A stretch of DNA of 64,000 nucleotides, from positions 117,873 to 181,872 of the forward strand of contig CAYNFQ010000001.1 in the NCBI GenBank assembly GCA_964396715.1, in the 5' to 3' direction. Positions within the stretch are counted from its first letter, which is position 1; each line of letters starts with the position of its first letter. Positions 7,739 to 61,847 of this stretch are shown one piece after another. Source of the stretch: an uncultured Gammaproteobacteria bacterium (GTDB lineage Bacteria; Patescibacteriota; Microgenomatia; Daviesbacterales; UBA10151). Under the pieces are notes generated by a model, which was not told the origin of the DNA, did no database searches, and was given only the letters and a program-made list of their open reading frames with translations. The position numbers and the translations under genes are program-made.

Positions 7739-8455
7739 ATGAAAAATGATTTGAAACAAATGGCTGGGGTGTCTTTAATTATTCCCGTTTTAGATGAAGA
7801 AAAAACTTTAACCGATATAATTTCCAAATGCTCAAAAGAGACAGTAGTGAAACAGCTCGTTATTGTAAATGATGGTTCAACAGATAAGACTAAAAATATC
7901 CTGGATAGATTAAGCAGTGAGAATAAGAATAGTAGGCCTCTTATCACGGTTACTCATCATTCAAAGAATTTAGGGAAAGGTGCAGCTATTAAAACTGGGT
8001 TAACTAGAGTTTTAGGAAAATATGTCATGGTTCAGGATGCGGATTTGGAATATTCTCCTGATGAAATTAAATACCTGTTTAATGAGGCGAAAAAAGAAAA
8101 CAGAATTGTTTTTGGCACAAGATCTCATCATAAAAAAAAGGGTTATCTTCTTGCCCAACTTGGTAACTGGTATTTAAATGTAATGTTTAATTTATTATTT
8201 GGTTACAGTTTAACAGACAGCTATACTTGTTATAAATTGATCCCCCAGACTATTTGGAAAAAAATGAATCTTGTATCAAATGGGTTTGAAATTGATGCCG
8301 AATTAATTTCTAAACTGGGTGTAAATGGTTATAAAATTAAAGAAATTCCTATATCATATTTTCCCAGAAAATATTCAGAGGGTAAAAAAATTAAGTGGTT
8401 GGATCTTTTTAAAGCAACTGCAGTAGCACTAAGGATTCGTTTTAGTCATTTGTAA
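7739..8455 (+). CDS. GT2 glycosyltransferase, polyprenyl-phosphate sugar synthase type (DPM1/ArnC-like)
   Basis: SLIIPVLDEE...VIVNDGSTDKT, DxD motif QDADLEY, C-terminal amphipathic tail; start could be 7682, 7739 or 7760; paralog of 51785..52525. Confidence 0.75.
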   Translation: MKNDLKQMAGVSLIIPVLDEEKTLTDIISKCSKETVVKQLVIVNDGSTDKTKNILDRLSSENKNSRPLITVTHHSKNLGKGAAIKTGLTRVLGKYVMVQDADLEYSPDEIKYLFNEAKKENRIVFGTRSHHKKKGYLLAQLGNWYLNVMFNLLFGYSLTDSYTCYKLIPQTIWKKMNLVSNGFEIDAELISKLGVNGYKIKEIPISYFPRKYSEGKKIKWLDLFKATAVALRIRFSHL

Positions 8456-13037: not shown

Positions 13038-14158
13038 AGGTGTTACAAATTTCAACCCATTTCCTGCCAAATCTGGGGGGTATCGAGACCCATCTTGGGG
13101 ATTTAACAAAGGCTTTGGTAAAAAGACATTGGCAGGTTTTTGTATTGGCATACAGGCCGCTTACCACAAAAACCGACTGGAAAATATATGAGATGGAGGG
13201 AAATTTAAAAGTTTTAAGAATTCCCTGGATACCGGGTTTTTTCTATAAACTTGTTCAAAGTCCTGTTTTGGAATTTTTATACCTTGTTCCGGGTCTTTTC
13301 CTTGCCACCCCAATACTGCTGCTGCTATACAATCCCGAAGTGATAAACGGACACGGATTGGTCGCCGGATTTGTTTCAGTTTTTTGGGGAAGGCTGTTTG
13401 GTAAAAAAGTTGTTGTTTCCACCCACAGTATTTACCATTTTCCAAAAAGAGGTTTATACAAACAATTTGTCCGTTGGATTTTCTCTAAATCAGATTTTGT
13501 TTTGGGACTTTCCAAGCAGGCTGTTTCGGAGATTAAATCATTGAATCCTGAGAATTCCAGGGTTGACAACTTTACTTATTGGGTAGATTTAAATAAGTTT
13601 AAAGTGCAAAGTGCAAAGTTCAAAGTGAAAAAACAGTTGGGGTGGGATGATAAATTTGTGATTTTGTTTGTGGGAAGACTGGTTTTAGAAAAAGGCATAA
13701 AGGAGCTTTTGCAGGCAGCAGGTATTTGGAATAAAAATATCCGGCTGGCAATTATCGGAAGCGGGCCTCTTGAAGGATACCTAAGGAGTCGATTTTCTCG
13801 CGCAAACATTCACTTTGCAGGAAAAATTGAGCAGGATAAATTGCCTGACTTTTATAACGCGGCGGATTTGTTAGTCGTACCTTCAATTCATGAAGAAGGA
13901 TTTGGCAGAGTGATTTTGGAATCGCTGTCTTGCGGATTGCCGGTTGTAGGAGCAAACCGCGGCGCTATTCCCGAAGCCATGGATGAAACCGTAGGAAAAC
14001 TTATTGACATTACTGTGCAAAACATTAAAAATGCCGTAGAGTATTTTTATTTGCATCAAGATGAATTAAGGAAATTAGCCAAAAACTGCCGCAACTTTGC
14101 AGAAAGGAGATATTCGGAAAAAAATGTTGAAAAAATCATCAAAGCCTACCTTGGATAA
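13034..14158 (+). CDS. GT4 (GT-B) glycosyltransferase
   Basis: C-terminal EEGFGRVILESLSCGLPVV signature; ATGA overlap with upstream gene. Confidence 0.8.
   Translation: MKVLQISTHFLPNLGGIETHLGDLTKALVKRHWQVFVLAYRPLTTKTDWKIYEMEGNLKVLRIPWIPGFFYKLVQSPVLEFLYLVPGLFLATPILLLLYNPEVINGHGLVAGFVSVFWGRLFGKKVVVSTHSIYHFPKRGLYKQFVRWIFSKSDFVLGLSKQAVSEIKSLNPENSRVDNFTYWVDLNKFKVQSAKFKVKKQLGWDDKFVILFVGRLVLEKGIKELLQAAGIWNKNIRLAIIGSGPLEGYLRSRFSRANIHFAGKIEQDKLPDFYNAADLLVVPSIHEEGFGRVILESLSCGLPVVGANRGAIPEAMDETVGKLIDITVQNIKNAVEYFYLHQDELRKLAKNCRNFAERRYSEKNVEKIIKAYLG
13593..13627. repeat. Imperfect heptanucleotide tandem repeat (CAAAGTK)x5 inside GT4 CDS, encoding NKFKVQSAKFKVK
   Basis: Read directly: taagttt aaagtg caaagtg caaagtt caaagtg; same unit as the tract at 48356-48390. 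Confidence 0.85.
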
Positions 14159-34377: not shown

Positions 34378-35528
34378 AAATTTATATTTTTGCCCTAGCT
34401 GCAACAGGTTCGGGAATTTCTGGTTCTGACAGGATTTTTATTGAATTTACTAGAAAGTGGAGTAAAGAAGTTCCAGTGATAGTCTATCTATGGAGGGAGG
34501 GTTATGAGATGTGCCAAAGGCAAAATCTGGGAATATCAAATATTGAATATCGAATATCGAATATGAAATCATGGAGACCTTTTAGATTTCTAATAAATTA
34601 CATAGTTAGAATTATAGAGGGGATAAAACTAGGGACTATCTTAAAATTAAAAAATACTCCCCAAATCATTATTTATTCAGCTTCGGAATTTTGGATGGAT
34701 TCATTGCTGGCATTTTTATTAAAATTGCGCTTTCCCAAGGTTAAATGGGCTGCAGCATGGTATCAAACTGCACCTAGTCCGCTAAAAGGATTTTCCGGGT
34801 CTTTAATTTATTGGTTAGTTCAACTTCCAATAAAACCTCTGATTGATAGATTTGCTAACTTTGTTTTAGTAAATAATGATATGGAGAAGAAGGTTTTCAA
34901 GAGACTGAACAGAAAAAATAAAGCAATAGTTGTTTTGGGAGCAATAGATCTAGAGGGAATAAAAAAGTGGCAAAAGATTATCGGTAAAAAGAAGAAAATT
35001 TATGACGGAGTATTTCAAGGCAGGTTTCATCCGCAAAAAGGAGTTTTGGAGCTTATTGGTATATGGAAGAAGGTGGTTGATAAGAAACCGGATGCAAAAT
35101 TGGTAATGATAGGGGATGGGCCACTGATGGAAAATGTCAAATTACAAATTACAAATTACAAATTAAACAAAAACATCATTCTCAAAGGGTATATGTTTGA
35201 TGGGGAAGAGAAATATAAGATATTTGCCCAAAGCAAAATTGTGGTGCATCCTGCCATCTTTGATTCCGGCGGTATGGCATCGGCCGAGGCAATGGCTTTT
35301 GGATTGCCTTGCGTGGGTTTTAATTTAAAATCATACATTTACTATTACCCTTCAGGAATGGAAAAGGTTGATGAAGGAAATACCGAAGCTTTTGCCAAAA
35401 AAATACTTGAGCTTCTAAGTAATAAAACTTTATATGAAAAAGTATCCAAAGAAACATTGTATCTAATTAATTATAAATGGTCATGGGAATATAGGGCTCG
35501 TCAAATACTACAAGCAGTGTTAGAATAA
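34359..35528 (+). CDS. GT4 (GT-B) glycosyltransferase
   Basis: C-terminal GGMASAEAMAFGLPCVGF GT4 signature. Confidence 0.75.
   Translation: MEKKNLKIYIFALAATGSGISGSDRIFIEFTRKWSKEVPVIVYLWREGYEMCQRQNLGISNIEYRISNMKSWRPFRFLINYIVRIIEGIKLGTILKLKNTPQIIIYSASEFWMDSLLAFLLKLRFPKVKWAAAWYQTAPSPLKGFSGSLIYWLVQLPIKPLIDRFANFVLVNNDMEKKVFKRLNRKNKAIVVLGAIDLEGIKKWQKIIGKKKKIYDGVFQGRFHPQKGVLELIGIWKKVVDKKPDAKLVMIGDGPLMENVKLQITNYKLNKNIILKGYMFDGEEKYKIFAQSKIVVHPAIFDSGGMASAEAMAFGLPCVGFNLKSYIYYYPSGMEKVDEGNTEAFAKKILELLSNKTLYEKVSKETLYLINYKWSWEYRARQILQAVLE
34531..34572. repeat. Imperfect heptanucleotide tandem repeat (GAATATC)x6 within GT4 CDS (encodes GISNIEYRISNMKS)
   Basis: gaatatc aaatatt gaatatc gaatatc gaatatg aaatcat. 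Confidence 0.85.
35138..35165. repeat. Perfect heptanucleotide tandem repeat (CAAATTA)x4 within the same GT4 CDS (encodes KLQITNYKL)
   Basis: caaattacaaattacaaattacaaatta. Confidence 0.9.
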
Positions 35529-38000: not shown

Positions 38001-38682
38001 TCACCGGCATGAATTTGAAAAAGATTCACAGAGCAAGTTTAAATTATTTTTAATGGCTATATCCGATCCATTGTCTTGGGTTGTTGATAAATCGGTAAGG
38101 TCAATATTGGATTTGGGGTGCGGTCAGGGCAAGCCAATGGCTATGATCAAACTTTGGCACAAAATAGATACTGCGGTGGGAGTTGAGCTATATAAGCCGT
38201 ATATTAAACTTGCAAGAAAGCAGAAGTTACACGATAAATATATTATTGGAGATGTAAGAGAGGTTAATTTTAAACCAAAATCTTACGATTTAGTTTTAGC
38301 CTCCCATGTTCTAGAGCATCTTCCTAAAAAGGATGCATGGAAACTTTTGAGCAAGATGGAAAAAATTGCCAAGATGCAAATTATTGTGGCAACGCCGATC
38401 GGAGCAATTTATCAACCTGCTTTTGATGATAATAAACTCCAGCAACACAAATCACATTTTCTGCCGGAAGAATTTGAAAAAAGAGGTTACAAGGTGATCA
38501 AATACGGTTTAAGATTTCTTTTGGATGAACATTCCGGGGGATTAGTTTACAAATTTAGCAATCCTACTGTTAAAAAAATTATCTATATTGTTAATTTTTT
38601 AATGACTCCTCTTTACTATCTATTCCCTCAAATTTGTGATTATTCGTTTGTGGCCTACAGGAGTATTAATAGTGAAAATTAA
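37990..38682 (+). CDS. Class I SAM methyltransferase, tandem paralog of the C-terminal domain of 36444..38000
   Basis: ILDLGCGQGKP...ASHVLEHLPKKDAWKLL...FLPEEFEKRGYKVIKYGLRFLL collinear with fused domain; start at Met13 of ORF. Confidence 0.7.
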   Translation: MKHNHRHEFEKDSQSKFKLFLMAISDPLSWVVDKSVRSILDLGCGQGKPMAMIKLWHKIDTAVGVELYKPYIKLARKQKLHDKYIIGDVREVNFKPKSYDLVLASHVLEHLPKKDAWKLLSKMEKIAKMQIIVATPIGAIYQPAFDDNKLQQHKSHFLPEEFEKRGYKVIKYGLRFLLDEHSGGLVYKFSNPTVKKIIYIVNFLMTPLYYLFPQICDYSFVAYRSINSEN

Positions 38683-41600
38683 AGATTACCTCTCAGTTGC
38701 CTTTTTATTTATTTTGTCAACTATACTTATTTTGATTTGGTTTAAGCAAGGACTGGCATTTGGCGGAGGAGACGTAGGTTTGCCCACTTTTAACCCCCAA
38801 AGGATTTTTCAATTTATCAGTCATATCTGGTGGGAAGCATCAGCCCCGGGTTTTCCAAGACCCCAGGGAATAACGGGTACCCCCTTTTATTTTTTGTTGT
38901 CCTTATTACAAAAAATAATTCCCTCATATGTATTAATGCAGGCTTTAATCTTCTGGTTGGTACTTTTTTTTATGGGGCTGGGTATGTACCTGGTTTCAAA
39001 AAGCGTTTTCGGAAAAGAAAAAGTGCTAATACCTCTTGTCTCCAGCATACTGTATCTCGTTAATCCTTATATGCAAATTTCAGTTTGGCATAGGTTTGTG
39101 CACACCACTTTTTTTCTGGCATCGACACTGCCTTTTTTGTTTATTTTTTGGCGCAGGTGGATTACATCAGGAAAACGATTAGATCTTCTTATTTTTTCTT
39201 TAATTAATGTTTTAGGTGCAATAATTTTCAGCACTTTGGGGTTTGTGATCAGTTTGTGGGTTTTTTTATTTTTTACCTCTTTTTTTATTATTTTTATACC
39301 GCGAAAAAGTTTATTCGAGGCAAAAACAATTATAGTAAGATCTACTGCGGGATTTATTGTTTGGGTATTTATATCTTTGTGGTGGATTTTGCCCCTTTTT
39401 GCTACTTCGCAGGCGATTTTTTCCAGACAGCACTCTTCAGCTGAGAGTGTAACAAACTTAATTGTTTTAAGCAACCAAACGGCAATTCCCAATACCTTGC
39501 AGGGAATTAACCCTTTTTATTTGTTTGAAGAAAAAGAATGGGGGGAAATTTACAATCAGTGGTATTTTCTACTGATGCCATTCATCCTAGTTACCCTGGC
39601 AGTTTTGGGGTTTGTAAGGGGTTTGGGTGATCGCAAATTTATTTTTTGGAGCCTGCTTTTTTTAGTAAGCATAATTTTTGCCAAAGGGGCGGCAGCCCCT
39701 TTTGGAGGCGGTTTTGTATATTTGTTTAGTAAATTTTTTGTATTGGGAGTTTTGAGAAATCCGTTTGAGAAAATAGGTATTTTTATACCCTTTACTTACG
39801 CCATCCTTATCCCGATAGGCTTGATCACTTTTTTTAAATTTGCCAAAAAAGCGAAACTTCAATATATAGTTATGCCATTTGTATCTATATTGCTGATTTT
39901 GATTTTAGTCATTTGGCATTGGCCATTTTGGCAGGGAAAATTATTCGGAAGCCAATATAGTCCGCCCGAAGTTCAGGTACCGGATTATTATTTAAAGGCA
40001 GATAATTGGATAAAGGAACAAGGAAAGGATGGAAGAATTCTTCACCTGCCGCTGGTTGTCGGTGAAGCAACTGCGTATAAGTGGGAGTATGGCTACAGAG
40101 GTGTTGAGCCGAGCCAGGTTTTTTTCACTTCAAATCCTTCTCTGTCCCAGGGGTTTAATTTAAGCTTTTTGGATGATGCGCTAGCAACGCTGCAGATATT
40201 TTTAAACAGGAGTGATTTTGTTGATGAAGATCAAATCAGGCAACTTCTTAAAATTTTTGGGATCCGATACATTGTTTTACATCTTGATATGGATCCAACA
40301 TATATGGACGTATACAACCCAATAAGGCTTAAAAAACAATTGGGTCAGCTTAAGTTTCTAAAAAAACAGAATGAATTCGGCAAACTTATTATATATGAGG
40401 TTCTGGAAGAAAACCCTATCATTTTTACAGCTTCATCTTTTGATTATTTACTAATGGGAGAGAAAAATCAATTTTGGCCCTGGTTAATTAAGAATAAAAA
40501 CAATCAACTTATCTCAGGGATAGACTTGGATGAAGATTCGATTCATACGGATCATTCGATAGTAGTTGCTTCTTTCTCATTTGATACACCGCCCTCAAAT
40601 CCCGTGGAAGAAAAAATAGAATTGGATCAGCTTCCATCTGTCCGGATACTACCAGGATCCCCCTTTTATTTTTTAATAAGGCTGAAAGAGTACTTTGAAA
40701 CATATTCTGTTTTTGGGAAAGAACGTATTTCAAAACAAATCCTCTTTGCCAGTAAAAGGCTTGTGGAAGCGGTTAAGATAAAGGAACTTGATAAAAACAA
40801 CCAAATCTCGGCAATTTTAACAGATTATTCAGACCTTTTGGACAAGCTGAAACTATCATTAAAAGGGGCATTTCCCTATGAAAAATCTGCAGTTGATGCA
40901 ATATTTGCAAGACATAGTGTTATTTTAGATTCACTTACAGATTCCGCTGTTACAGGTAGTGAGAAGGAAATTGTAGTAAAAGCTAAAGAAAAATTGGCCG
41001 AAGATTTGAGTTTATGGGGTTTGCGGCCTCTTATCGCTTTTAATAAAGAAACATCATTGTATAACAGAAGAGTATTTACATTTCAGGTTTCGAAAACAGG
41101 GGATTATGAGGTTTTATTCGGCCTGGATAAAGGAAATAGCTTTGATGAAATTTTTGATATAGCTTTGGATGGAAAACCGATCTTAAAAAATAATCCGACT
41201 GATCTGGAACAACCGGTCAAAATAATAAGTTTCGGCAAAATATATTTAGAGCCAGGTTATCATGAATTAAGTTACCGTTCCAAAAAAATTCCCGTAAATA
41301 TTTTATCGCTTGATAAGTGGTTTAAGTCGGAAAAAGGCGAGTTTAGCGGAAACTCAGATGAGATGAGTATAAGCAGTGAGATAAATGAAACAGCGAGCAT
41401 GCAATTGCCTATGAAAGATTTTATTGCCGGGAATACTTATATACTTCGATTTGAATACTGGGTTCAAAAAGGCAAGGGGCCGATAGTGCAAGTACTTTCG
41501 GATAACGACCCAATAATAAAAGGTAAAAGAGAGATGAAAGCAGATAAGCAGTTTGCCGCCGAAACCTATAACCGTTATTGGCAAAATGCGTTTGTGAGTT

Positions 41601-42139
41601 TTGAACCCCGTTTGTCAGCCGATGATACTTTAATTGAGATATCGGTTGAACCCTGGAATGATTGTGAGATAATCAGCCCGATTCGTTCGACTTGCAAGAT
41701 TAAGAAATTTAGAAAACAATTTGACAGAAAAAGCACATTGATTGTCAAAAATGTTGTCCTTGAAAGAATTTCCAGGTCTGAGATTTTTCTTAAAACCTCA
41801 AATAGCAAAATTAAAGAGTCTACAAATTCAGGCAGGGTTGAATATGCTAGGGAAAACCCTTCTTTTGTCAGGGGGAAATTAAAAATCGATAAACCCCAAG
41901 TTTTGGTATTCGCTGAAACTTTCGATAAGGGTTGGAAGTTAGATTTATTTAAAGAGGGTAGAAAAATTAATCCTCAGGAGCATTTATTGGTAAACGGTTA
42001 TGCTAATGGTTGGTTGGTAAAGGAAGCTGGAGAATATGAATTCTCTATCAATTTTGACGCCCAGAAACTAGTCAACATAGGCGGTATAATATCTATGATA
42101 ACTTTGGGGGGATTACTATTATGGCTTATCAGAAAATAA
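38636..42139 (+). CDS. Giant (1167 aa) polytopic membrane protein, family B; N-terminal ~570-aa multi-TM GT-C-like module and ~600-aa C-terminal extracytoplasmic domain
   Basis: WFKQGLAFGGGDVGLPTFNPQRI...WWEASAPGFPRPQG, VLRNPFEKIG, ILHLPLVVGEATAYKWEYGYRGVEPS, IRYIVLHLDMD, C-terminal NGYANGW; alternative GTG start at 38672. Confidence 0.7.
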   Translation: MIIRLWPTGVLIVKIKDYLSVAFLFILSTILILIWFKQGLAFGGGDVGLPTFNPQRIFQFISHIWWEASAPGFPRPQGITGTPFYFLLSLLQKIIPSYVLMQALIFWLVLFFMGLGMYLVSKSVFGKEKVLIPLVSSILYLVNPYMQISVWHRFVHTTFFLASTLPFLFIFWRRWITSGKRLDLLIFSLINVLGAIIFSTLGFVISLWVFLFFTSFFIIFIPRKSLFEAKTIIVRSTAGFIVWVFISLWWILPLFATSQAIFSRQHSSAESVTNLIVLSNQTAIPNTLQGINPFYLFEEKEWGEIYNQWYFLLMPFILVTLAVLGFVRGLGDRKFIFWSLLFLVSIIFAKGAAAPFGGGFVYLFSKFFVLGVLRNPFEKIGIFIPFTYAILIPIGLITFFKFAKKAKLQYIVMPFVSILLILILVIWHWPFWQGKLFGSQYSPPEVQVPDYYLKADNWIKEQGKDGRILHLPLVVGEATAYKWEYGYRGVEPSQVFFTSNPSLSQGFNLSFLDDALATLQIFLNRSDFVDEDQIRQLLKIFGIRYIVLHLDMDPTYMDVYNPIRLKKQLGQLKFLKKQNEFGKLIIYEVLEENPIIFTASSFDYLLMGEKNQFWPWLIKNKNNQLISGIDLDEDSIHTDHSIVVASFSFDTPPSNPVEEKIELDQLPSVRILPGSPFYFLIRLKEYFETYSVFGKERISKQILFASKRLVEAVKIKELDKNNQISAILTDYSDLLDKLKLSLKGAFPYEKSAVDAIFARHSVILDSLTDSAVTGSEKEIVVKAKEKLAEDLSLWGLRPLIAFNKETSLYNRRVFTFQVSKTGDYEVLFGLDKGNSFDEIFDIALDGKPILKNNPTDLEQPVKIISFGKIYLEPGYHELSYRSKKIPVNILSLDKWFKSEKGEFSGNSDEMSISSEINETASMQLPMKDFIAGNTYILRFEYWVQKGKGPIVQVLSDNDPIIKGKREMKADKQFAAETYNRYWQNAFVSFEPRLSADDTLIEISVEPWNDCEIISPIRSTCKIKKFRKQFDRKSTLIVKNVVLERISRSEIFLKTSNSKIKESTNSGRVEYARENPSFVRGKLKIDKPQVLVFAETFDKGWKLDLFKEGRKINPQEHLLVNGYANGWLVKEAGEYEFSINFDAQKLVNIGGIISMITLGGLLLWLIRK

Positions 42140-42483
42140 AATCAGTATCCATAAGGTTGTTTATTTTGTTTCTTTCAATAGTATTGATTTATTATACTAA
42201 TGGTAATGCCGGCAGTGAATCTTTTGGAAATATTCAATCTGCAATTTTGTCAGCAGGTTTGATTGTTGCAGTGTATTTACCTGCTAAGAGGCCTTTCATA
42301 CTTCTCTTTGCCATTTTAATGTGGTCTGTTATGATAGGATTTTACCTGGTAGAAGCTCGGGATTATGCTTACTTTTTCGGCAGTATAGGTTTTGGGATAA
42401 TATTTCTGGTAATCTTAACTTATGTTCCGGAACTTTTAAAAACAGGTTATATAGCCGATTTTCAAAAATGGTTCAAAGATTAA
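42121..42483 (+). CDS. Small (120 aa) 3-4 TM membrane protein following giant B1
   Basis: Hydrophobic; C-terminal GSIGFGIIFLVILTYVPELLKTGY resembles GSLGIGILAILIFSYFGDFVKRGF of 45935..46264. Confidence 0.5.
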   Translation: MAYQKIKSVSIRLFILFLSIVLIYYTNGNAGSESFGNIQSAILSAGLIVAVYLPAKRPFILLFAILMWSVMIGFYLVEARDYAYFFGSIGFGIIFLVILTYVPELLKTGYIADFQKWFKD

Positions 42484-45400
42484 CAAAATTTTTTTTCAAT
42501 AATAATTTGAACAGTCATTTTTTTGCGTTATTTACGTTTTTTTTACTCAGTGTATTTCTTGTTTTCAGCTGGTTTAGACAAGGCTTAATTTACGGGGGAG
42601 GAGATGTTGGTTTGCAGACCTTTAATCCCCAAAGGATACTGGAAATCTCCCAATTTATCTGGTGGGAAGCAACCGCCCCCGGTATTCCGGTTCCCCAGGG
42701 TTTAACCGCCATACCATTCAATTTTGCCTTTTCTATTTTACAATCCATAGGTTTTAGCCCGTTTTTACTTCAGGCAAGCTTGTTTTTTCTTATACTTTTC
42801 TTCTGTGGTCTGGGAATGTATTTTCTTATTTTATTTTTGTTTGGGGACAGGTATAAAATTTATGCAATTTTGGCGGGATTATTCTATATGGTTAATCCAT
42901 ACATGATGATTTCGGTTTGGCACAGGTTTGTCCACTCAACGTTCTTCTTTATTTCGGCTCTGCCTTTTTTAACTATTTTCTGGCTGAAGTGGATCAGGAA
43001 CAAAAATCCGATATCACTCCTGATTTTTTTATTAATTAACCTTATTTCCTTGTATGCTTTCGGGACGATTGCCTATATTCTTACCCTCTGGCTTTTCCTT
43101 TTTCTAATCACTATTCCTGAAATAATTTTTTCCTGGCAAGGCCTAAAAAATTTTAAGAAAATATTGACGGTTTTTTTAGTAGGTTTCTTTTTTTGGGTTT
43201 TGACAAATGCCTGGTGGTTGGTGCCTATATTTAAAATCTCTCCGACTGCTTTGTCGGAGCAACACAGTAATGAAGAAACTTTATCTACACTAATAAATAT
43301 AAGCAGACAAACTATACTTCCCTACTCATTACAAATGATCAATCCTTTCTATTTATTTTACCAGCTGGATTTGGGGAAAAGTTACCAGAATGTTTTTATC
43401 CGTGTCCTCCCTTGGATTTTTGTTTCAGTTATTTTTATCGGATTAATAAGGGCTTTGTTCAATAAAGACATGGCAAGATGGACTCTGGTTTATCTTGCCG
43501 TAATATTTTTTGCCAAAGGCGCGGCTTCCCCCTGGGGTTTTATATATATCTTTGCCTTAAAATATTTTTTCCCCCTCGGGGTGCTGCGGAACCCGTTTGA
43601 AAAAATTGGTATTCTGTTACCTCTGGTAAGCACAATTTTATTTATCATTGGATTAAAATTTGTTTATGAAAGCCTAAGACATAAATTCAGCGTGAGGGTT
43701 GCAGCAGTTAGCCTGGTAGTTGTTTTTGGATCTGTTTTTATTTTTTGTTTGCCCTTATTCGGAGGGAGAATATTTGGTAGGTTTGATAAACCGGAATTTG
43801 TAAGTGTACCGCAATCTTATAAGGATGCGGATAATTGGATTAAATCCGACTATGAAAAGAATAAAAATCAAAATCCAGGCAAGATTTTACATTTGCCCCT
43901 GACAAGAGGTGAAAGCATTAATTATAATTGGGAATATGGCTACAGCGGACTGGAATCCAGTGCATTATTCTTTACAGCCGCCCCTTCTATTTCTCACGGG
44001 TTCAATCTCAGGAGAACTGATGATTCTTTGACAACGCTTTATTATTCGCTTCGAAATAGTCATTTATTTGATCAGAATATTACAAAAAGACTCTTGAGTG
44101 ATTTTAATATTGCCTACATTGTGTTGCATAAAGATGTGAAATGGCAGGGTTCTGATTTGTACAATCCCGCAGAGACAGAGGAGGTTTTAAATAAATTAAA
44201 TTTTATTAAACTTGAAAAAACCTTTGGAGATTTAATGATTTATAAAGTATTGGAAGAGAATTTTAATCCGAAGATTTTCATAAGCGGAAACTATCACATA
44301 ATTTATCCTCCCAATACTTTTAGCGTACAGCCCTGGATAGAAGCGTCAGGTAGTTCCATCATAACTTCCGTAGATATTGAAGATAATCGAAAATTGGAGG
44401 AATTTTCCCGAAGCACTACAATTTTTTCTAAAAGCTCCTTTGTTTATACAGAGGCATCATCTTCTTCAATTGTGTCAACTATAAATGCATTGGTTTCCAA
44501 TCCGGCAAGTAAAGACTTATGGTTAGATTCATTAATTAAAATCAGGCCGATTTTGAAACAAAATGGTGAGATCCAGGCAGAAGAATTTAGCAGTCAAATA
44601 ATTTATGCCAGTGAAAAAATTTTAAAAATAATGAGAGGATTTGCTTTAGAGAAAAATGATCCTTCCCCAAAAGAGGTAGACGATTATGGTCAAATAGTTA
44701 AAAACCTCTTTTCTGCCAATACCTACAGTCCCAGACTACAACTTTACGCTAACAGTACACAGCTCAGTCAGATATTCCAGATTCATTTATACATTCTCAA
44801 AATAATTTCTGAAATAACCCAATCAGAAACCAGAAACAATTTGATAAGGGTTTTAGATCTGTTAAAAGAAAATTTATCCAGAAATAATCTTATTCCCGAT
44901 TCTTCGGAGATGCAGGCTATCTCATCAAGAAGAGATGTTTATAAATTTGAAGTGCCTTATGATTCGGATTACAAAATTATCCTTGCATTTTCCAAGGACA
45001 AATCTATTTATCAAAATAAATTAGATAAGCTATTTTTTATCCTTGACGGTAAACCACTTAATTTTAAGGGAGAGGTAGAAAATGACCTAATTTCATTTGG
45101 TCCTGTATCCATTGCAAAGGGGTCACACATGATTAGTTTTCCGGTCCTTTTATCGGATAATTTATCAGTTATCGCTAATTTTATTAAGGGGGGGGAGGTT
45201 AATTTATCAGATGATGGTAATTTTTATCTTAAGGGGGCTGACACTAATTTAAGCTTTCTAGAAAGTAGAATAAACAATACTTTTGGACAAGACATATTTA
45301 AAGTAAACTTCGATGTAAAAGTAGAAAAAGGAAACGGTTTTAATTTTCAACTTTTGCAGGATACGGACACCATTGATCAAACCGGCCAGCCGAATTTGGC

Positions 45401-45938
45401 AATAAATCAGAAGATTTTCCAACCGGAGGGAACAGATTGGCTAGAGTATGATTTTTTTCTGCCGCCTCTCAGGTTTAATACGGATACTGTTGCCATAAGA
45501 TTTGTAGCTAATTCTCCCATAAAAGTAAGAAATTTAAAAATTGAGAGAGTATTTAACGGAGACGTTTTTTTAAGGGATATTAAATCTTTTAATAAGATAA
45601 ATGATAAAGGAGCGGGTAAGGTAGATTTCTATCAAAAAAACCCTGCCCTTTACAGAGGTAAGATTTATTTGGATAAACCATCCTTTATAATATTTTCAGA
45701 ATCTTTTCATCCCGGTTGGAAATTAGTTTTATCTAAACAGGGCAAAGATTATATTCCTACCATTCATACAATGGCAAACCTTTATGCAAATGCCTGGTAT
45801 ATTGATAAAGACGGCGAATATGATTTTAAGCTGGAATTTGAACCTGAAAGAATAGTGAAAATTGGCTCTCTATTGGCATTAGCAGGTTATTTGAGTCTTA
45901 TAATCTATATTATCTTAAAAAATAGAAAAAATAGATGA
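42468..45938 (+). CDS. Giant (~1156 aa) polytopic membrane protein, family B paralog
   Basis: WFRQGLIYGGGDVGLQTFNPQRI...WWEATAPGIPVPQG, VLRNPFEKIG, ILHLPLTRGESINYNWEYGYSGLESS, IAYIVLHKDVKW, LYANAW; start at Met50 of ORF (overlaps 3' end of small protein gene). Confidence 0.7.
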   Translation: MVQRLTKFFFNNNLNSHFFALFTFFLLSVFLVFSWFRQGLIYGGGDVGLQTFNPQRILEISQFIWWEATAPGIPVPQGLTAIPFNFAFSILQSIGFSPFLLQASLFFLILFFCGLGMYFLILFLFGDRYKIYAILAGLFYMVNPYMMISVWHRFVHSTFFFISALPFLTIFWLKWIRNKNPISLLIFLLINLISLYAFGTIAYILTLWLFLFLITIPEIIFSWQGLKNFKKILTVFLVGFFFWVLTNAWWLVPIFKISPTALSEQHSNEETLSTLINISRQTILPYSLQMINPFYLFYQLDLGKSYQNVFIRVLPWIFVSVIFIGLIRALFNKDMARWTLVYLAVIFFAKGAASPWGFIYIFALKYFFPLGVLRNPFEKIGILLPLVSTILFIIGLKFVYESLRHKFSVRVAAVSLVVVFGSVFIFCLPLFGGRIFGRFDKPEFVSVPQSYKDADNWIKSDYEKNKNQNPGKILHLPLTRGESINYNWEYGYSGLESSALFFTAAPSISHGFNLRRTDDSLTTLYYSLRNSHLFDQNITKRLLSDFNIAYIVLHKDVKWQGSDLYNPAETEEVLNKLNFIKLEKTFGDLMIYKVLEENFNPKIFISGNYHIIYPPNTFSVQPWIEASGSSIITSVDIEDNRKLEEFSRSTTIFSKSSFVYTEASSSSIVSTINALVSNPASKDLWLDSLIKIRPILKQNGEIQAEEFSSQIIYASEKILKIMRGFALEKNDPSPKEVDDYGQIVKNLFSANTYSPRLQLYANSTQLSQIFQIHLYILKIISEITQSETRNNLIRVLDLLKENLSRNNLIPDSSEMQAISSRRDVYKFEVPYDSDYKIILAFSKDKSIYQNKLDKLFFILDGKPLNFKGEVENDLISFGPVSIAKGSHMISFPVLLSDNLSVIANFIKGGEVNLSDDGNFYLKGADTNLSFLESRINNTFGQDIFKVNFDVKVEKGNGFNFQLLQDTDTIDQTGQPNLAINQKIFQPEGTDWLEYDFFLPPLRFNTDTVAIRFVANSPIKVRNLKIERVFNGDVFLRDIKSFNKINDKGAGKVDFYQKNPALYRGKIYLDKPSFIIFSESFHPGWKLVLSKQGKDYIPTIHTMANLYANAWYIDKDGEYDFKLEFEPERIVKIGSLLALAGYLSLIIYIILKNRKNR

Positions 45939-46264: not shown

Positions 46265-46350
46265 AATACCTATTCTCACTTATTTTATTTTTTCTGATAG
46301 TAGCATCGGTATTTTTTTATATTTTGGGGGTTAGATTTAAGAAAAAATGA
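46261..46350 (+). CDS. Micro-ORF, 29-aa single-TM peptide MKYLFSLILFFLIVASVFFYILGVRFKKK
   Basis: ATG overlaps upstream TGA (46261-46264), its TGA overlaps ATG of giant B3 (46347-46350); below ORF-track length cutoff. Confidence 0.35.
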   Translation: MKYLFSLILFFLIVASVFFYILGVRFKKK

Positions 46351-49031
46351 AGAAAAGAATTGCCTTAATGTTTTTTCTGATCTTACCCTTTTTTTGGATT
46401 TTTTGGTTACCTGGCCCTAGGGTGGCAACAGATTATCACCTGACCACAAAGGAAACCCAGCTGGATAACCTGTTTCCCTGGATCTGGAGAGAAACCAGTG
46501 TGGCAGATGGTTTGGGGGAATATACTGCTATTACTCTTTGGTCACAGCCGCTTCATTCATTTTTCGCCAGTCTATATCAGATTAATTTACCTTTTTCATT
46601 TTTGACAAAGCTGCTTGTCGGATTAATTATCCTGCTTAGTATTATTTCCATGCTCAAGCTTTTAGATTATTTGAAAATTAAAAGTCCGTATCAAGAAGTT
46701 GGTGTAATTTTTTACATATTAAATACATTTTTTTTACTTCTCCTTGACGGTGGACAGTTGGCCTTGACACTTGCTTACGCAGTTTTTCCTCTCTCGGTTT
46801 ATTGTTTTCTGCTACTCATGCAAACAGCAAATTTGAAAAGAAGACTTTTATTTGCTTTCAGCGTCCTGGCAATTTCCATATTTGATATCAGGATTGTTTA
46901 TTTGCTGTTTATGGTCTGTGCCATTTTTGTCCTGTTTAAATTTTTTTTATCACCTTCAAAAAAAGAAGTTGTTTTAGTTTTTAAAGAGGTTTTACTATCA
47001 GCAATATTTACCATACTGATAATTTTTCCCTTTCATGCTTACTGGATACTACCTGCTTTAGTTGTTAAGACACCACAGTTGCCGCAGACTTATGAGAGAG
47101 TTTCCCAGATAGATTTTTTAAGCTTTTCCACACTGCTTCATTCCCTAATTTTGAATCAGCCCCACTGGTATAAAAATATCTTTGGTAAAATATCAGAGGT
47201 AAGTTTTGAGTTTTTGCTGATTCCCGCAACAGCTTTTATCTCTTTAGCCCTAGTTAGGAGAAATACCCAGGTTGCTTTCTGGTCACTTATTGCAATCTTG
47301 GGAATTTTTCTCTCCAAGGGTTCAAATCCACCCCTGCCTCAAATTTATTCTTATCTTTTTGCCAGCATTCCCGGATTTTCAATTTTCCGTGATCCTGCCA
47401 AATTTTATTTTCTAATTTGTATCGCGTACACAATATTAATAGGATTTTCTCTTCAGGCGATGGGTAAGTTAGCAAAAATTATCCCATTTGTTTTTCTTTT
47501 GTATATAGTCTGGCTTGCCAGGCCGGTATATCTTGGACAAATGAGCGGACTATTTTCCTTCCCATCTTTTGAAAAAGAATTTAATTTACTATCAGAGGTA
47601 ATAAAAGAAGACAAACAATTCTCCCGGGTTTTCTGGATTCCCAATTCAGCACCTTTAGGTTATGTTGGTCCCAATCACCCGCAAGTTGAAGCTTCCAGGT
47701 TATCTAAAAAAAGGCCTTTTGCCGCAGCAACAGTAGGAACTTATGAGACATTTAATTTCTTAAGAGAGGCACCTTTCATGGGAGAAATTTTTGATGTGTC
47801 GGGGATTGGATATATTGCATATCCCTATATAGACAAACAAAGGGAGGAGGCGGATTTTGATAAAGAAAAATATTACTACACATTTTTAAATCAACTGTCC
47901 AAACTTCCCTGGGTTTCCAAAGTTGAATATTCGGGTATGCCGCTGCTTAAAGTCAAAAATCACCAGGATAAATTTTTTGTTACGGGAAATACCTGGTGGA
48001 TAATAGGGGATGATAGTTTATATAAAGAGTCAACCAAAAGTGCTACGCTTAAATTATCCAAAAACAGTTTGATTTTTACCGAAGAGCATGCGGGTTTGGG
48101 GAAAAGACTGGATGAGGTTTCGGATGCCAAAATTATACTGAATAAAAAAAGCAACATAGACCTTGCAGCAAGTTTTATTGATGCCTCAAAACTTTTTTTT
48201 CCGGCAAAAAGCCTTAATTTCAGTCCCGATGAATCAGGTTGGTGGAAAAGGGAGGCGGTGGATTTGGTTTGGTGGAGAGATTTTTTACAAAACAAATACG
48301 GGATAGATAATAAGGATTTTGATTTAGGAGGAGGATGGGCGGTGGGGGAAGGGTATTCAAAGTTCAAAGTTCAAAGTTCAAAGTTCAAAAAGGACAATAT
48401 TTTGCTGGCAAGAGTAATGGAAAGTTCCAGAAGTGGGAATTTGAAATTTTATCAAGACAATCAACTAATCGGGGAAGTGGGAACTAAAATTAACGGAGAT
48501 GCCAATGTTAGATGGTTTGAAGTAGGGGAGTTAAGTGGAAATGGTAGCGGGATTGCTATAGAGTCCACAGGAGATATTAATGTGGTTAATACATTGGCAG
48601 TTTTGGACAAAAACGACTGGGATAGTTTAAAGGATAAAGCCGATAAGCTGCAGGGGAGAGTGGTAAGTTTTGATGACAAGAGTATACAAAATGTAACCGG
48701 CTCCATGGTTTCTTACCGGAGGATAAACCCCACTAAATATATTGTAAATATAGACGGTTTAACAAAGCCGTCATTGTTAGTATTTTCCCAAAATTATGAT
48801 AGTTTATGGAAGATGAGTGGTCAGACTCCCCTGCCACGTTCAGCTAACATGAACGTGGCTCTGCCGGTGTATAGTTTGCTGAATGGATTTAGAGTGGAAC
48901 AGGACGGAGAGTATATTGTTGAATTTGAGGCGCAAAAGTATGTTTATTTAGGGTTAGCAATCTCCATAATGACTTTGCTTACAATAACTTTTCTACTCAT
49001 CTTAGGCACCAGGAGATCATCTAGGCTATAA
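46347..49031 (+). CDS. Giant (894 aa) polytopic membrane protein, divergent family B paralog
   Basis: N-terminal multi-TM, FRDPAKFYFL (aligns to RNPFEKIG), C-terminal LLNGF...DGEYIVEFEAQKYV like DGEYEFSINFDAQK of B1. Confidence 0.65.
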   Translation: MKKRIALMFFLILPFFWIFWLPGPRVATDYHLTTKETQLDNLFPWIWRETSVADGLGEYTAITLWSQPLHSFFASLYQINLPFSFLTKLLVGLIILLSIISMLKLLDYLKIKSPYQEVGVIFYILNTFFLLLLDGGQLALTLAYAVFPLSVYCFLLLMQTANLKRRLLFAFSVLAISIFDIRIVYLLFMVCAIFVLFKFFLSPSKKEVVLVFKEVLLSAIFTILIIFPFHAYWILPALVVKTPQLPQTYERVSQIDFLSFSTLLHSLILNQPHWYKNIFGKISEVSFEFLLIPATAFISLALVRRNTQVAFWSLIAILGIFLSKGSNPPLPQIYSYLFASIPGFSIFRDPAKFYFLICIAYTILIGFSLQAMGKLAKIIPFVFLLYIVWLARPVYLGQMSGLFSFPSFEKEFNLLSEVIKEDKQFSRVFWIPNSAPLGYVGPNHPQVEASRLSKKRPFAAATVGTYETFNFLREAPFMGEIFDVSGIGYIAYPYIDKQREEADFDKEKYYYTFLNQLSKLPWVSKVEYSGMPLLKVKNHQDKFFVTGNTWWIIGDDSLYKESTKSATLKLSKNSLIFTEEHAGLGKRLDEVSDAKIILNKKSNIDLAASFIDASKLFFPAKSLNFSPDESGWWKREAVDLVWWRDFLQNKYGIDNKDFDLGGGWAVGEGYSKFKVQSSKFKKDNILLARVMESSRSGNLKFYQDNQLIGEVGTKINGDANVRWFEVGELSGNGSGIAIESTGDINVVNTLAVLDKNDWDSLKDKADKLQGRVVSFDDKSIQNVTGSMVSYRRINPTKYIVNIDGLTKPSLLVFSQNYDSLWKMSGQTPLPRSANMNVALPVYSLLNGFRVEQDGEYIVEFEAQKYVYLGLAISIMTLLTITFLLILGTRRSSRL
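48356..48390. repeat. Heptanucleotide tandem repeat (TTCAAAG)x4 + 1 imperfect inside giant B3 CDS (encodes SKFKVQSSKFKK)
   Basis: ttcaaagttcaaagttcaaagttcaaagttcaaaa; same CAAAGTT unit as 13593-13627. Confidence 0.9.
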
Positions 49032-51096: not shown

Positions 51097-51788
51097 GTGA
51101 TCCTTCTTCTTTTCAAACATTGGAATCAATGAGTCAGGCTGTCTGGTATAACCAGTGGACTTTAAAACTCTTTGCCAAATATTTAAAAGGAGATATCCTG
51201 GAGGTTGGTTGCGGAATAGGAAATTTTACCAAATCTTTACTAAAATACGGTAAAGTTTGGGCCGTAGATATTAATAGAATATATATAAGCAATATTAAAA
51301 AAGAACAGGGGGATAAAGTGCGGGTTGGGTTTGGTGATATTGCAAAAGGAAAATATTTTTTTGGTAAGCGGAATTTTGATAGCATCGTTTGCCTAAATGT
51401 TCTGGAACATATTGAGAAAGACGATACGGCATTAAAAAATTTATTTGATCTTTTACAAAACAACGGAACTTTAATTCTACTAGTGCCGGCCCACCCTTTT
51501 CTTTATGGCGAAATTGACAGATCAATAGGTCACTTCAGAAGGTATTCTAAAAAAGAATTATTAAACATAATGGAAAGTATAGGCTTTAATATTATTGAAT
51601 CCTGGAGAATAAACTTTTTGGGGGCAATAGGTTGGTTTATTGCGGGAAGGATTTTGAACGAAAATAAAGTTGAAAATGAAAAAATAAAAATATTTAATTT
51701 ATTGGCACCCTTTTTTTTGGCGATTGAAAATATCATTGAACCGCCAATCGGGACTTCTATACTGGTAGTTGCGCAGAAAAAAATATGA
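51093..51788 (+). CDS. Class I SAM-dependent methyltransferase
   Basis: ILEVGCGIGNFTKSL motif I, LNVLEHIEKDD. Confidence 0.75.
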   Translation: MSDPSSFQTLESMSQAVWYNQWTLKLFAKYLKGDILEVGCGIGNFTKSLLKYGKVWAVDINRIYISNIKKEQGDKVRVGFGDIAKGKYFFGKRNFDSIVCLNVLEHIEKDDTALKNLFDLLQNNGTLILLVPAHPFLYGEIDRSIGHFRRYSKKELLNIMESIGFNIIESWRINFLGAIGWFIAGRILNENKVENEKIKIFNLLAPFFLAIENIIEPPIGTSILVVAQKKI

Positions 51789-52525
51789 AAACGCTTTCCA
51801 TTATTATTCCTGTATATAACGAGGAAAAAACTGTTGGAGTATTATTAGGAAAGGTAGTAGATGCGAAATTACCCGCAGGTTTCAAAAAAGAAATAATTAT
51901 TATTGATGATGGATCAACCGATAAAACTGAATCAGTTTTATCGAAATGTCAAATGTCAAACCTGTCTGCCGTCAGGCAAGATGTCAAATGTCAAATTTTT
52001 AGACATAATACAAATCAGGGTAAAGGTGCTGCCATAAGAACAGGTTTAAAGCATGTGACAGGAGACTATATTATTATCCAGGATGCGGACTTGGAATATA
52101 ATCCTGCTGATTATAAAGAGTTGCTTAAGCCGATTTTGGAAAAAAAGGCTAAGGTAGTATACGGCACCAGGTTAAAAAACTATCCATTAAGGTTGTGGGG
52201 GGAAAATAAGACAATACTGCCCTTGCATTTAATAGCAAATAAGTTTTTAACTTTTATGACAAATATGCTTTATGGAAGTAAACTCTCTGATATGGAAACC
52301 TGTTATAAATTATTGACAAAAAATGTCCTAACTGGTTTTGATTTGCAATCAAACAGATTTGAAATTGAACCGGAGATAACCGCCAAAATATTAAAAAGAG
52401 GATTTTCAATTTTAGAAATCCCGATCAAAGTTACTCCCAGAACACACAAAGAAGGTAAAAAAATCAGCTGGAAAGATGGATTTAGGGCTGTATTTAGCTT
52501 AGTTAAATATCGATTTTATGACTAG
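51785..52525 (+). CDS. GT2 polyprenyl-phosphate sugar synthase (DPM1/ArnC-like), paralog of 7739..8455, carrying an in-frame repeat insertion
   Basis: LSIIIPVYNEEKTV...IIIDDGSTDKT, QDADLEYNP; insertion CQMSNLSAVRQDVKCQI absent from paralog. Confidence 0.75.
   Translation: MKTLSIIIPVYNEEKTVGVLLGKVVDAKLPAGFKKEIIIIDDGSTDKTESVLSKCQMSNLSAVRQDVKCQIFRHNTNQGKGAAIRTGLKHVTGDYIIIQDADLEYNPADYKELLKPILEKKAKVVYGTRLKNYPLRLWGENKTILPLHLIANKFLTFMTNMLYGSKLSDMETCYKLLTKNVLTGFDLQSNRFEIEPEITAKILKRGFSILEIPIKVTPRTHKEGKKISWKDGFRAVFSLVKYRFYD
51944..51994. repeat. Composite element inside GT2 CDS: (AAATGTC)x2 - 20-nt core cctgtctgccgtcaggcaag - (ATGTCAA)x2; the core is the reverse complement (1 mismatch) of the 28-nt repeat unit at 61240-61312
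   Basis: Read directly; reverse complement of cttgcctgtcggcagacagg (61255-61274) is cctgtctgccgacaggcaag. Confidence 0.8.
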
Positions 52526-60591: not shown

Positions 60592-61209
60592 ATGTATAAT
60601 CTTTACATGAGTATTTTTACAGACAGGATGGGAAGGGGTTTAACGGCCGCGCAGGCTTTGGGGAAAATCCTGGGAAGGATTTATAATTGGGTTTTGGATA
60701 TTGAACTGCTTGTGGTGACCTGGGCAGGTTTGGTTCCCCTGCATTCATTTCGCCTTTTTATTTACTTTTTGGCTGGTATGAAGATAGGCAAAGATTCAAG
60801 GATTCATATTGGCGCCCGCTTTTTTTATCCGGCAAATATTACGATTGGAAATGGGACTATTATTGGAGATAACGCATTTTTGGATGGGAGGGATAAACTT
60901 ACTATTGGTGATCATGTGGATATTGCCTCGCAAGTTTTGATCTATAACAGTGAGCATGATATCAATTCAGATGACTTTCACGCGGTAAATGGGATTGTGG
61001 AGATTGGCGATTATGTTTTTATCGGTCCCAGGGTAATCATACTGCCGGGAGTAAAGATAGGCAGGGGAGCAGTTGTTGCGGCAGGAGCTGTGGTGACAAA
61101 AGATGTAGAAAATTTCGCCATAGTCGGAGGAGTGCCGGCAGAAGTGATAGGCGAACGAAAGATTCACAACTTACATTATCAGCTTGGGAGGGCACGCTTA
61201 TTCCAATGA
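60592..61209 (+). CDS. Hexapeptide-repeat (LbH) O-acetyltransferase, WcaF/WbbJ-like
   Basis: [59 protein letters not shown] hexapeptide repeats. Confidence 0.8.
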
Positions 61210-61847
61210 AGAAATTTCCAATCTCTCGACTTCGCTCGAGACAGGTTTTCAATCTTGCCTGTCGGCAGACAGGTTTTCAATCTTGCCTGTCGGCAGACAG
61301 GTTTTCAATTTTTTTACTGTTCTCTTTTTTACTGTTTATTTATATGGTTTGGCCTTCACCTTCTGCCATAGCGGATTTTAAGTCTCTGCCAAATTCTCAA
61401 AAATCGCGCCTGGAGGGTGACACAATACAAATCCCCAATGTTGCCGCTTATTTTTCCAATCACTACCGTGAATTTGTGGTGCCTTTTTATGCAAAAAATT
61501 ACCGGTTAAAGGTGAATTTGCCAATTCCCCCGCTCAGATTAAATCACCCGCCCGAATTTTCCTGGATTACAATAAAAAAACATACGGATTCCACCTATCT
61601 TGAGGAGTTGGTTTATCCTTTAAGAGATTCGTTGTTTGTAAACGGATATGAGCCATTTTATCCTGATGGGTCACCTAAATTTTGGGGGTCAACAAAATTT
61701 GAGGTTGACGGAAATCTTTGGGAGACCAAAACTACCTTGAGGTTTTACCACTCGAGTATTTGGATCAGACTGCTTGTTTGGTTTGGAATAACTTTATCCA
61801 TTTTTCTGCTATATAAAATGACTAAAAAAATTATATTTAATAAATGA
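61206..61847 (+). CDS. Hypothetical bitopic membrane protein (N- and C-terminal TM segments, central extracytoplasmic domain); 5' coding region contains the 28-nt tandem repeat
   Basis: ATGA overlap with acetyltransferase stop; residues 12-36 encoded by the repeats in shifting frames; no family recognised. Confidence 0.45.
61240..61312. repeat. Tandem direct repeat, 28-nt unit gacaggttttcaatcttgcctgtcggca x2.6; adjacent units form hairpin CCTGTC-ggca-GACAGG
   Basis: Read directly; two perfect copies (61240-61267, 61268-61295) plus 17-nt partial third. Confidence 0.9.

Follow-up and report, generated by a model that had tools for sequence, protein, structure and literature searches.

A short GC-rich palindromic sequence that lies in frame within a glycosyltransferase family 2 (GT2) gene was analyzed in a 64,000-nt stretch of contig CAYNFQ010000001.1 from an uncultured bacterium of the GTDB lineage Daviesbacterales; this whole stretch is referred to below as the window. 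The sequence, a 20-nt core at positions 51961-51980, is probably a decaying copy of a repeat element of about 21 nt that is GC-rich, imperfectly palindromic, non-coding and non-autonomous, and that is tolerated in coding loops. This reading is supported by the presence or absence of the insert at orthologous sites, by varied palindromes at the same site, by the occurrence of the core at a second site and by a family of copies that extends across phyla. Further support comes from a consensus of the form AAT-core-TT(T), from enrichment at heptamer arrays and at the tips of longer palindromes, and from the same insert type at both sites in related Daviesbacteria. Overall, the 20-mer has the appearance of selfish DNA that is remarkably small and widespread.

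The host gene (51785..52525, plus strand, 246 aa) matches Pfam PF00535 (Glycos_transf_2) with E = 3e-34 and is named glycosyltransferase family 2 in the record of contig JACPUL010000012.1, part of the Candidatus Daviesbacteria metagenome-assembled genome GCA_016192255.1. Within the window, which has a GC content of 35.7%, the core CCTGTCTGCCGTCAGGCAAG stands on the plus strand between the two halves of a heptamer array, detected by Tandem Repeats Finder (TRF) as (AAATGTC)x2.4 at 51944..51960 and (ATGTCAA)x2.3 at 51981..51996. The order from 51944 to 51996 is AAATGTC AAATGTC AAA CCTGTCTGCCGTCAGGCAAG ATGTC AAATGTC AAAT, and an exact 15-mer, ATGTCAAATGTCAAA, is common to both flanks at a spacing of 35 nt (5x7). 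The heptamer repeats on either side of the core are thus as the initial annotation had described them. The same holds for its claim that the core is the reverse complement, with one mismatch, of a 20-mer in an array near 61240: two minus-strand matches are present in the window, at 61254-61273 and 61282-61301, each with one mismatch, and none of 100 dinucleotide shuffles gave any match to the core. The insertion itself amounts to 21 nt, the core and one adjacent A, and is translated in frame as LSAVRQD (7 aa); no stop codon is present in the sense frames of this copy. The peptide CQMSNLSAVRQDVKCQI, which had been annotated as an in-frame addition, is correct as to frame, but it is the product of array and insert together and not of the insert. 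Accordingly, the window protein carries 7 extra residues relative to its nearest ortholog and 14 relative to orthologs lacking the array.

Orthologs of the GT2 protein were collected by protein search and alignment, and the DNA of selected loci was then compared. An empty site was found in the closest ortholog (L122/P0002, 80% identity), which reads TCG AAATGTC AAATGTC AAAAGTC AAATGTC AAAT, an uninterrupted (AAATGTC)x4.6 array; the window contains the same sequence plus exactly 21 nt. In L123 the same heptamers enclose another GC-rich palindrome, TCCCTCGACCTCGCTCGGGACAAG, which has 24 nt and lies at the same array centre, L124 also retains the heptamers and holds a 30-nt palindrome there, and L125 combines AAATTTC heptamers with ...CAAACTGCCTTCGGCAGGACAA, an insert of the CTGCCTTCGGCAGG type. 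The array is conserved in orthologs of 62-80% identity, while some other orthologs are devoid of it altogether. Because the empty site of L122 has the full x4.6 array and the array is kept down to 62% identity, the array is older than the insert. Of the 120 listed orthologs, 73 allowed the variable segment between the motifs DDGSTD.T and N.GKG to be delimited. Its principal length classes are 14 aa, seen in 8 proteins (about 1.6 heptamers), 21 aa, seen in 14 proteins (4.6 heptamers), and 28-32 aa, the array with a filler. These classes differ by steps of 21 nt, and every insert retained at this site is a multiple of three. A metagenome scan with TTATCGAAATGTCAAATGTC for further alleles of the site returned a single match, an unrelated high-GC contig.

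These comparisons change how the heptamers are to be understood. They had been taken for target-site duplications; in L122, where the site is empty, the repeats already exist, and the 21 nt of the insert came with a duplication of at most 1 nt, if any. As judged from the DNA alignments, the heptamers appear to be the landing site of the insert and not duplications made by its insertion. The proposal of a mobile palindromic element that tolerates coding regions can therefore be kept in part: its behaviour as an insert is borne out by the empty site, by the different fillers and by at least 120 unrelated loci described below, and its target-site duplications have to be given up. The core is neither confined to this locus nor part of a segment shared by all orthologs, since copies occur elsewhere and orthologous sites are empty or otherwise filled. 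The paralog at 7739..8455, said to have a shorter segment at this position, cannot be used as an empty site because its segment, measured between T and N, is hardly shorter (25 versus 28 aa).

The GT2 copy has lost part of its palindrome. The canonical core forms, as DNA, a 6-bp stem with a GGCA loop at -5.8 kcal/mol (z = -3.3), whereas the T-to-A exchange in the GT2 copy costs one stem pair and leaves -3.4 kcal/mol. An RNA fold of 81 nt around this copy was no better than shuffled sequences (z = -0.65). Given the broken stem and the fold, a deliberate hairpin, the alternative raised in the initial annotation, finds no support in this copy. In an AlphaFold2 model of the GT2 protein (mean predicted local distance difference test score, pLDDT, 86), residues 54-71 run from the end of helix 48-54 through a short helix (58-63) and a loop into strand 67-73; the right half of the array encodes VKCQI at the beginning of this strand, beta3. 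The local pLDDT of this segment, 73-79, is the lowest in the N-terminal half, and the model is consistent with an insert in a permissive peripheral segment.

The second insertion site lies in the N-terminal region of a gene for a membrane-anchored hypothetical protein (61206..61847, plus strand; no Pfam match), which has 213 aa as compared to 180-184 aa in its orthologs. A composite of 87 nt (29 aa) at 61218..61304 on the plus strand is missing from P0122 and from the empty site of P0124/L127, while P0123 (L126) carries a different insert there, one of the type seen in L125 at the GT2 site. The 5' end of the gene contains four TTTYCAA heptamers with three inserts of 24, 21 and 21 nt between them, arranged as TTTCCAA T-CTCTCGACTTCGCTCGAGACAGG TTTTCAA T-core TTTTCAA T-core TTTTCAA. 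Relative to L127 (ATGAAGAAATTTTCAATTTTTTTA...), the 87 extra nt consist of three extra heptamers (21 nt) and these inserts. TRF reports the region as an array of 28 nt x2.5 at 61239-61309, and the RNA fold of the composite is stable (z = -4.4). The two core copies, CTTGCCTGTCGGCAGACAGG at 61254..61273 (plus strand; hairpin -5.8 kcal/mol, z = -3.3) and an identical copy at 61282..61301 (plus strand), are read as LACRQTG and CLSADR. The first unit, at 61223..61245 on the plus strand, differs from these: it is the palindromic insert CTCTCGACTTCGCTCGAGACAGG, whose reverse strand shows the loop motif GAGCGAAGTCGA.

This first unit belongs to a second insert family, in which a variable stem surrounds a conserved 12-nt loop, GAGCG-NAG-YCGA (window 61223-61245; L123:1397-1528; L135:283-384). 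Peptides encoded by this family (SLDFARDK, SLDLARDK, PFDSAQG, TRPERSRG) are seen at the array centres of several Daviesbacteria genes. A third site is the first heptamer array of the glycosyltransferase family 4 (GT4) gene at 34359..35528, which appears in the protein as QISNxKFQISN; some orthologs have PFDSAQG, TRPERSRG, GSQKRILQAKT or other inserts at its centre, and the DNA of L135 shows TCCCGAGCGAAGTCGAGGGA within TATCAAG heptamers. In the regions 51093-52525 and 60592-61847 consecutive genes overlap by ATGA start/stop junctions (at 51785 and 61206), and the insert-host genes are probably co-translated in tightly packed operons. They belong to a large glycan-biosynthesis cluster with GT2, GT4, PMT_2, Wzy_C, Polysacc_synt and AftD-like GT-C members. 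Within the window, GC-rich near-palindromes TTTGCCAAAGGGGCGGCAGCCCCTTTTGG with a 9-bp stem were also noted at 39677-39712 and 43510-43541, in equivalent places of the adjacent very large open reading frames (ORFs) 38636..42139 and 42321..45938; these ORFs are probably paralogs, since other GC-rich segments are common to them too.

Further copies of the core, the search for which had been suggested in the initial annotation, were found far beyond the Daviesbacteria. Exact matches to CTTGCCTGNCGGCAGACAGG were sought on both strands of one genome per species (596 Gb). The 20-mer was found in at least 120 loci, as compared to about 4 expected by our own estimate for 19 specified bases in this amount of DNA. 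About 15 phyla are represented among the matches listed, including Bacteroidota, Ignavibacteriota, Gammaproteobacteria, Planctomycetota, Omnitrophota, many Patescibacteria, Spirochaetota, Bacillota, Chloroflexota, Nitrospirota, Desulfobacterota, Bdellovibrionota and others. Five cultured isolates are among them, namely two Terrimonas species (sp. R1 and T. pollutisoli), Maribacter arcticus DSM 23546, Kriegella aquimaris DSM 19886 and an Aureibaculum. The flanks of these copies are locus-specific and unrelated, which argues against a single contaminant as their source. In other genomes the core is mostly single-copy per locus, and some listed genomes have several loci, e.g. six in Terrimonas sp. 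R1 and five in one metagenome-assembled genome of Ignavibacteriaceae. The 121 listed copies yield the extended consensus AAT-core-TT(T), with one free stem position N occupied by T in 87, C in 17, A in 9 and G in 8. The N=G variant has TGCCTGGCGGC in common with the 5' end of E. coli 5S rRNA; an origin from 5S rRNA was dropped as a coincidence because G is found in only 8 of the 121 copies and other 5S sequences differ.

Of the listed copies, 62 of 121 lie in stop-free frames of at least 150 aa, on both strands and in all six phases, some of these being merely open frames upstream of the real start codons. The core contains no stop codon in any of its six frames. Copies occur within essential genes as well. 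Among conserved proteins, HisRS with the core has 7-8 aa extra relative to solved homologs (GGRYDNL..GNKT[NLPAGRQ]VPAVGF), Pth about 11-14 aa and the N-domain of a Cu-ATPase about 6-7 aa. The core-bearing loci show an excess of further motifs as well: GTCATTSCGA (19 versus about 1 expected), GGCAGGCAGG (24 versus about 0.4) and GAGCGNAGYCGA, a motif of the second insert family (9 versus about 0.4).

The sequence around the core was also examined for symmetry. An 8-nt direct repeat with at least 6 of 8 matches spans the core in 13 of 118 listed copies, as compared to 1.8 expected, and is perfect in one; these 13 are the copies embedded in heptamer arrays. A fixed target-site duplication across phyla was rejected on this count. 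By stringent criteria, 13% of the copies have a heptamer or direct-repeat context and 10% lie at the apex of a longer inverted repeat, each about 10 times the control. Nested arrangements of this kind, with the core at the tip of a longer lineage-specific palindrome, are found in the Ignavibacteriota loci L018, L041, L071, L073, L084 and L098 and also in L007 and L067, in the forms GTCATTGCGA..TCCCGAT-core-..ATCGGGA..GCAATCTC and GTAGAGACGT..-core-..ACGTCTCTAC. The Flavobacteriaceae loci L044, L052 and L091 carry the core in the loop of GGTAACTGAGCG..GTCGAAGTT units, next to copies of the unit that do not contain it. Locus L009 (4238-4310) holds two inverted core copies 17 nt apart, a doublet like those of REPINs. 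In Chitinophagaceae, including the Terrimonas isolates (L009, L028, L055, L059, L099, L109, L114), the core is part of a repeated unit of about 100 nt, ...TTTTTTGGCCATATGGAAT-core-TTCGCCAAATAATCATC...ATGGCTCATTTCAT, which stands just upstream of the start codons of unrelated genes, several times per genome, and which may be a larger lineage-specific repeat or leader.

When 1,294 open frames of at least 80 aa lying no more than 2.5 kb from the cores were clustered all against all, neither a recurrent neighbouring gene family nor a linked transposase emerged, and the element is called non-autonomous for this reason. Two exact core matches were present in viral contigs of IMG/VR, none in 72,556 plasmids, and phages gave only 21-nt matches at chance level; there is thus no evidence for a phage or plasmid carrier. 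Rfam 15 produced no family match at the gathering threshold for the window and nine loci, and only noise for the array at E <= 10. A published description of the 20-mer element was not found by full-text searches, the coverage of which is incomplete and whose matches were primers or papers on other subjects, and an earlier description is possible.

The heptamer array of the GT2 gene is one of a class. Among tandem arrays of periods 4 to 15 that reach 3.5 units without interruption, the window contains five, and every one of them has period 7. As reported by TRF, these are (GTGATAA)x4.3 at 4226..4255 (minus strand) in an amine-oxidase-like ORF and, on the plus strand, (AAAGTGC)x4.4 at 13601..13631 in the GT4 gene 13034..14158, (GAATATC)x4.9 at 34531..34569 and (CAAATTA)x4 at 35138..35165 in the GT4 gene 34359..35528, and (TTCAAAG)x4.9 at 48356..48389 in ORF 46347..49031 (894 aa, no Pfam match). 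Three of the five are thus hosted by GT4 genes. The array at 34531 is the one whose orthologs carry central palindromic inserts; the array at 35138 follows the GDGP motif, and its unit varies among orthologs at constant length. Between the window and L135 (L135:283-384 and L135:883-960), array position and length are kept while the unit differs by 1-2 bases in every copy (GAATATC versus AAGTATC, CAAATTA versus AAAATTA). Protein patterns of arrays that differ in this way between orthologs are KLQITNYKL, KFKISNLKL and KCKVQSAKL. Such homogenization of units within lineages amounts to concerted evolution in a heptamer repeat that is coding. Period 7 is enriched in other phyla too, with 25 arrays in 833 kb of core-bearing loci as compared to 0-4 for periods 5, 6 and 8-15. 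Long examples are L010:7555 (TACCCCC x16.7), L033:2572 (GAGACAA x12.1) and L006:422 and 3528; they recall the short tandemly repeated repetitive (STRR) sequences of cyanobacteria. A Sigma-70 -35 reading of the arrays, based on TTGACA in the heptamer reverse complement, was dropped, as other heptamer units do not contain it.

All seven arrays of the window, the two interrupted ones included, are in frame within ORFs, and gain or loss of one unit leads to an early stop in each. Since 7 is not a multiple of 3, the arrays could act as frameshift switches for surface-glycan genes. This leads to an explanation of the insert that we consider unlikely, namely that the arrays switch glycosyltransferase genes by slippage and that the central insert was selected for splitting the array into 2.4 and 2.3 units, thereby locking the gene in the ON state. 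The setting would fit, with seven in-frame arrays in one glycan cluster, and simple repeats are an established cause of glycosyltransferase phase variation in Haemophilus and elsewhere among bacteria. The homogenized units at kept length argue for ongoing slippage or conversion, and the array length classes differ by exactly three units. However, the orthologs examined included neither a variant in heptamer copy number nor a frameshifted allele, protein searches being blind to the latter, and three N-terminally short orthologs of ORF 61206, considered as OFF alleles, turned out to be start-codon calls with an intact frame. Furthermore, arrays of merely 4-5 units rarely slip, and slippage accounts neither for the origin of the insert nor for its copies in other phyla, which lie in HisRS, Pth, the ATPase and intergenic DNA.

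There is also a small chance that the core is a functional cis-element, i.e. an attenuator or terminator hairpin or an RNA-processing or protein-binding site, that is conserved for its function and recruited into genes for regulation. The exact identity of the 20-mer across so many phyla would be expected in that case. The orientation CTTG...CAGG is followed by T-rich sequence as in an intrinsic terminator (T at +1 in 73 and at +2 in 58 of the 121 listed copies). At 61254-61309 this orientation is on the sense strand at the 5' end of the gene, where the array folds with the z value of -4.4 given above, and in Chitinophagaceae the repeated unit of about 100 nt lies just upstream of start codons. 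Against such a function, there is no matching Rfam family, copies in coding regions use either strand (27 versus 35) and all six phases, the stem position N is free, and the neighbouring genes are unrelated. Moreover, the stem of the GT2 copy is broken and its fold gives no signal, and orthologs have unrelated palindromes at the same site or, in many cases, none.

Two further readings are very improbable. The inverted copies at 51961 and 61254/61282, 9.3 kb apart in two genes of one cluster, could be imagined as sites for inversion of the intervening glycan genes, but no recombinase is encoded among the genes called between or beside them, both genes would be fused to antisense sequence, gene order is unchanged at orthologous loci, and the core is mostly single-copy elsewhere. 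That the in-frame insert was selected as a peptide module altering enzyme function is hardly credible either: LSA(D/V)RQD is the commonest frame (18 of the 62 in-ORF listed copies), but all six frames are used, the array copies of the window read differently, orthologs function without the insert or with unrelated fillers, and the frame bias is as expected from purifying selection against Cys-rich or hydrophobic frames.

For a decaying copy of a small repeat element, the course of events may be pictured as follows. The element would have landed at the centre of an older (AAATGTC)~4.6 array whose codons span the last part of a surface helix, a loop and the beginning of beta3. The insert would then be translated as LSAVRQD and tolerated because its length is a multiple of three, because it is stop-free in six frames and because the segment is structurally permissive. 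Copying would take place in trans and need no protein encoded by the element; its sites would be AT-rich AAT|TT junctions or single-stranded hairpin tips. A hairpin-recognizing enzyme of the HUH/Y1 type, as for REP/RAYT and for IS200/IS605, which leaves no duplication, is one candidate agent, and replication template switching at stable hairpins is another; both are suggested because duplications are absent, a conserved tail lies beside the stem, and hairpin tips and AAT|TT junctions are preferred.

Several points weigh against this picture. Neither an act of movement nor an enzyme has been observed, and the copies counted amount to three in 64 kb. Among the listed copies, 77% show no flank symmetry, which limits the landing-site rule to a minority. 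Neutral selfish DNA would not readily account for a 20-mer that is exactly the same in about 15 phyla, an identity that hints at constraint. Presence and absence at orthologous sites might in principle reflect deletions instead of insertions, and the apparent sharing of one insert type by both sites within a lineage is pieced together from contigs of different samples (L125 and L126).

It is possible, if on balance doubtful, that a pan-bacterial pool of GC-rich hairpin elements of about 20-30 nt exists, maybe the smallest mobile DNA yet described, with the 20-mer, the GAGCGNAGYCGA-loop type and the CTGCCTTCGGCAGG type as members. Such elements would encode nothing and leave no target duplication, and a universal host process, be it a hairpin-specific HUH-type enzyme, a topoisomerase or template switching, would multiply them within genomes and spread them from phylum to phylum. 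Heptamer-array centres and palindrome tips would be their preferred points of entry, and surface loops, those of essential proteins included, would repeatedly be lengthened by 7-10 residues, while the glycosyltransferase arrays of the candidate phyla radiation (CPR) would in parallel serve as surface frameshift switches. If so, the size limit for mobile DNA behaviour would fall to about 21 nt, and short loop insertions in conserved proteins, including aminoacyl-tRNA synthetases, could come from a shared source at the DNA level and not from selection at the protein level. Short stretches of conserved-protein genes might then derive from such elements, with possible consequences for how proteins of CPR and Bacteroidota are annotated, aligned and used in phylogenetics, and the heptamer arrays in CPR cell-envelope genes would be candidate contingency loci in organisms not yet grown.

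When compared with known systems, the element departs in defining features from miniature transposable elements with inverted repeats (MITEs), Rickettsia palindromic elements (RPEs), repetitive extragenic palindromic (REP) sequences and CRISPR arrays. A MITE needs terminal inverted repeats around an internal region, a length of about 50-500 bp and a parent insertion sequence; here an imperfect palindrome of 20-21 nt stands alone, no transposase recurs nearby, no duplication of fixed length is seen (13 of 118 listed copies with at least 6 of 8 matches, one perfect), and the repeats beside the GT2 copy are older than the insert, as the empty ortholog shows. The 28-nt unit at 61239-61309 reads on the reverse strand as a hairpin followed by ...ATTGAAAA and recalls the tail of Cas6-type CRISPR repeats, ATTGAAA(C/G). 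A CRISPR array was nevertheless rejected, as only 8 nt separate the cores where unique spacers of about 30 nt would be expected, no cas genes are nearby (the neighbours are glycan-synthesis genes) and copies elsewhere are single; the best CRISPR-DR match was at noise level, with 12 bits as compared to a gathering score of 38.

RPEs are palindromic repeats that occur in frame within unrelated coding genes as well as between genes and that are translated and tolerated; they are about 150 bp long, have a conserved frame and hence a conserved peptide, and are reported from Rickettsia species only (PMC10969869). In-frame insertion into unrelated genes is likewise found here, in the GT2 gene, ORF 61206, HisRS, Pth and the Cu-ATPase. 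The present element differs in being about 21 nt long, as opposed to about 100-150 bp, in using six frames instead of a conserved one and in its spread over about 15 phyla among the matches listed.

REP sequences are imperfect palindromes of 20-40 nt that are extragenic, specific to a species or genus, start with GTAG or GGAG and are associated with the gene of a REP-associated tyrosine transposase (RAYT), a Y1 HUH transposase. With these and with REPINs the element shares an imperfect palindrome with a short conserved non-palindromic tail by the stem (CTTG here), the absence of a duplication and of coding capacity, and occasional inverted doublets (L009). In contrast, the tail here is CTTG with AAT upstream, about half of the listed copies are in long open frames, the sequence is identical across phyla, and no linked gene was found within 2.5 kb.

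The arrays resemble contingency loci in that an intragenic repeat unit that is not a multiple of three is found in surface-structure genes, in the seven in-frame cases of the window; they differ in their short length of 4-5 units, and no length variant was seen among the orthologs examined. STRR sequences are heptanucleotide repeats that lie mainly between genes in heterocystous cyanobacteria. The unit length is the same in the window, where the arrays are intragenic.

The GC clusters of yeast mitochondria, such as GC42, are short GC-rich hairpins in AT-rich DNA for which cut-and-paste alone has been excluded (PMC4478555). The element resembles these clusters, and also the RHE of sponges and the palindromes of Volvox, as a short GC-rich hairpin in AT-rich DNA with a constrained stem and no encoded protein. 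GC clusters are also said, in the title of work by Weiller et al. from 1989, to occur as single elements and tandem arrays. The clusters are organellar and lineage-specific, and GC42 targets an AG dinucleotide, whereas the element described here is bacterial, is found in many phyla and sits at an AAT|TT junction.

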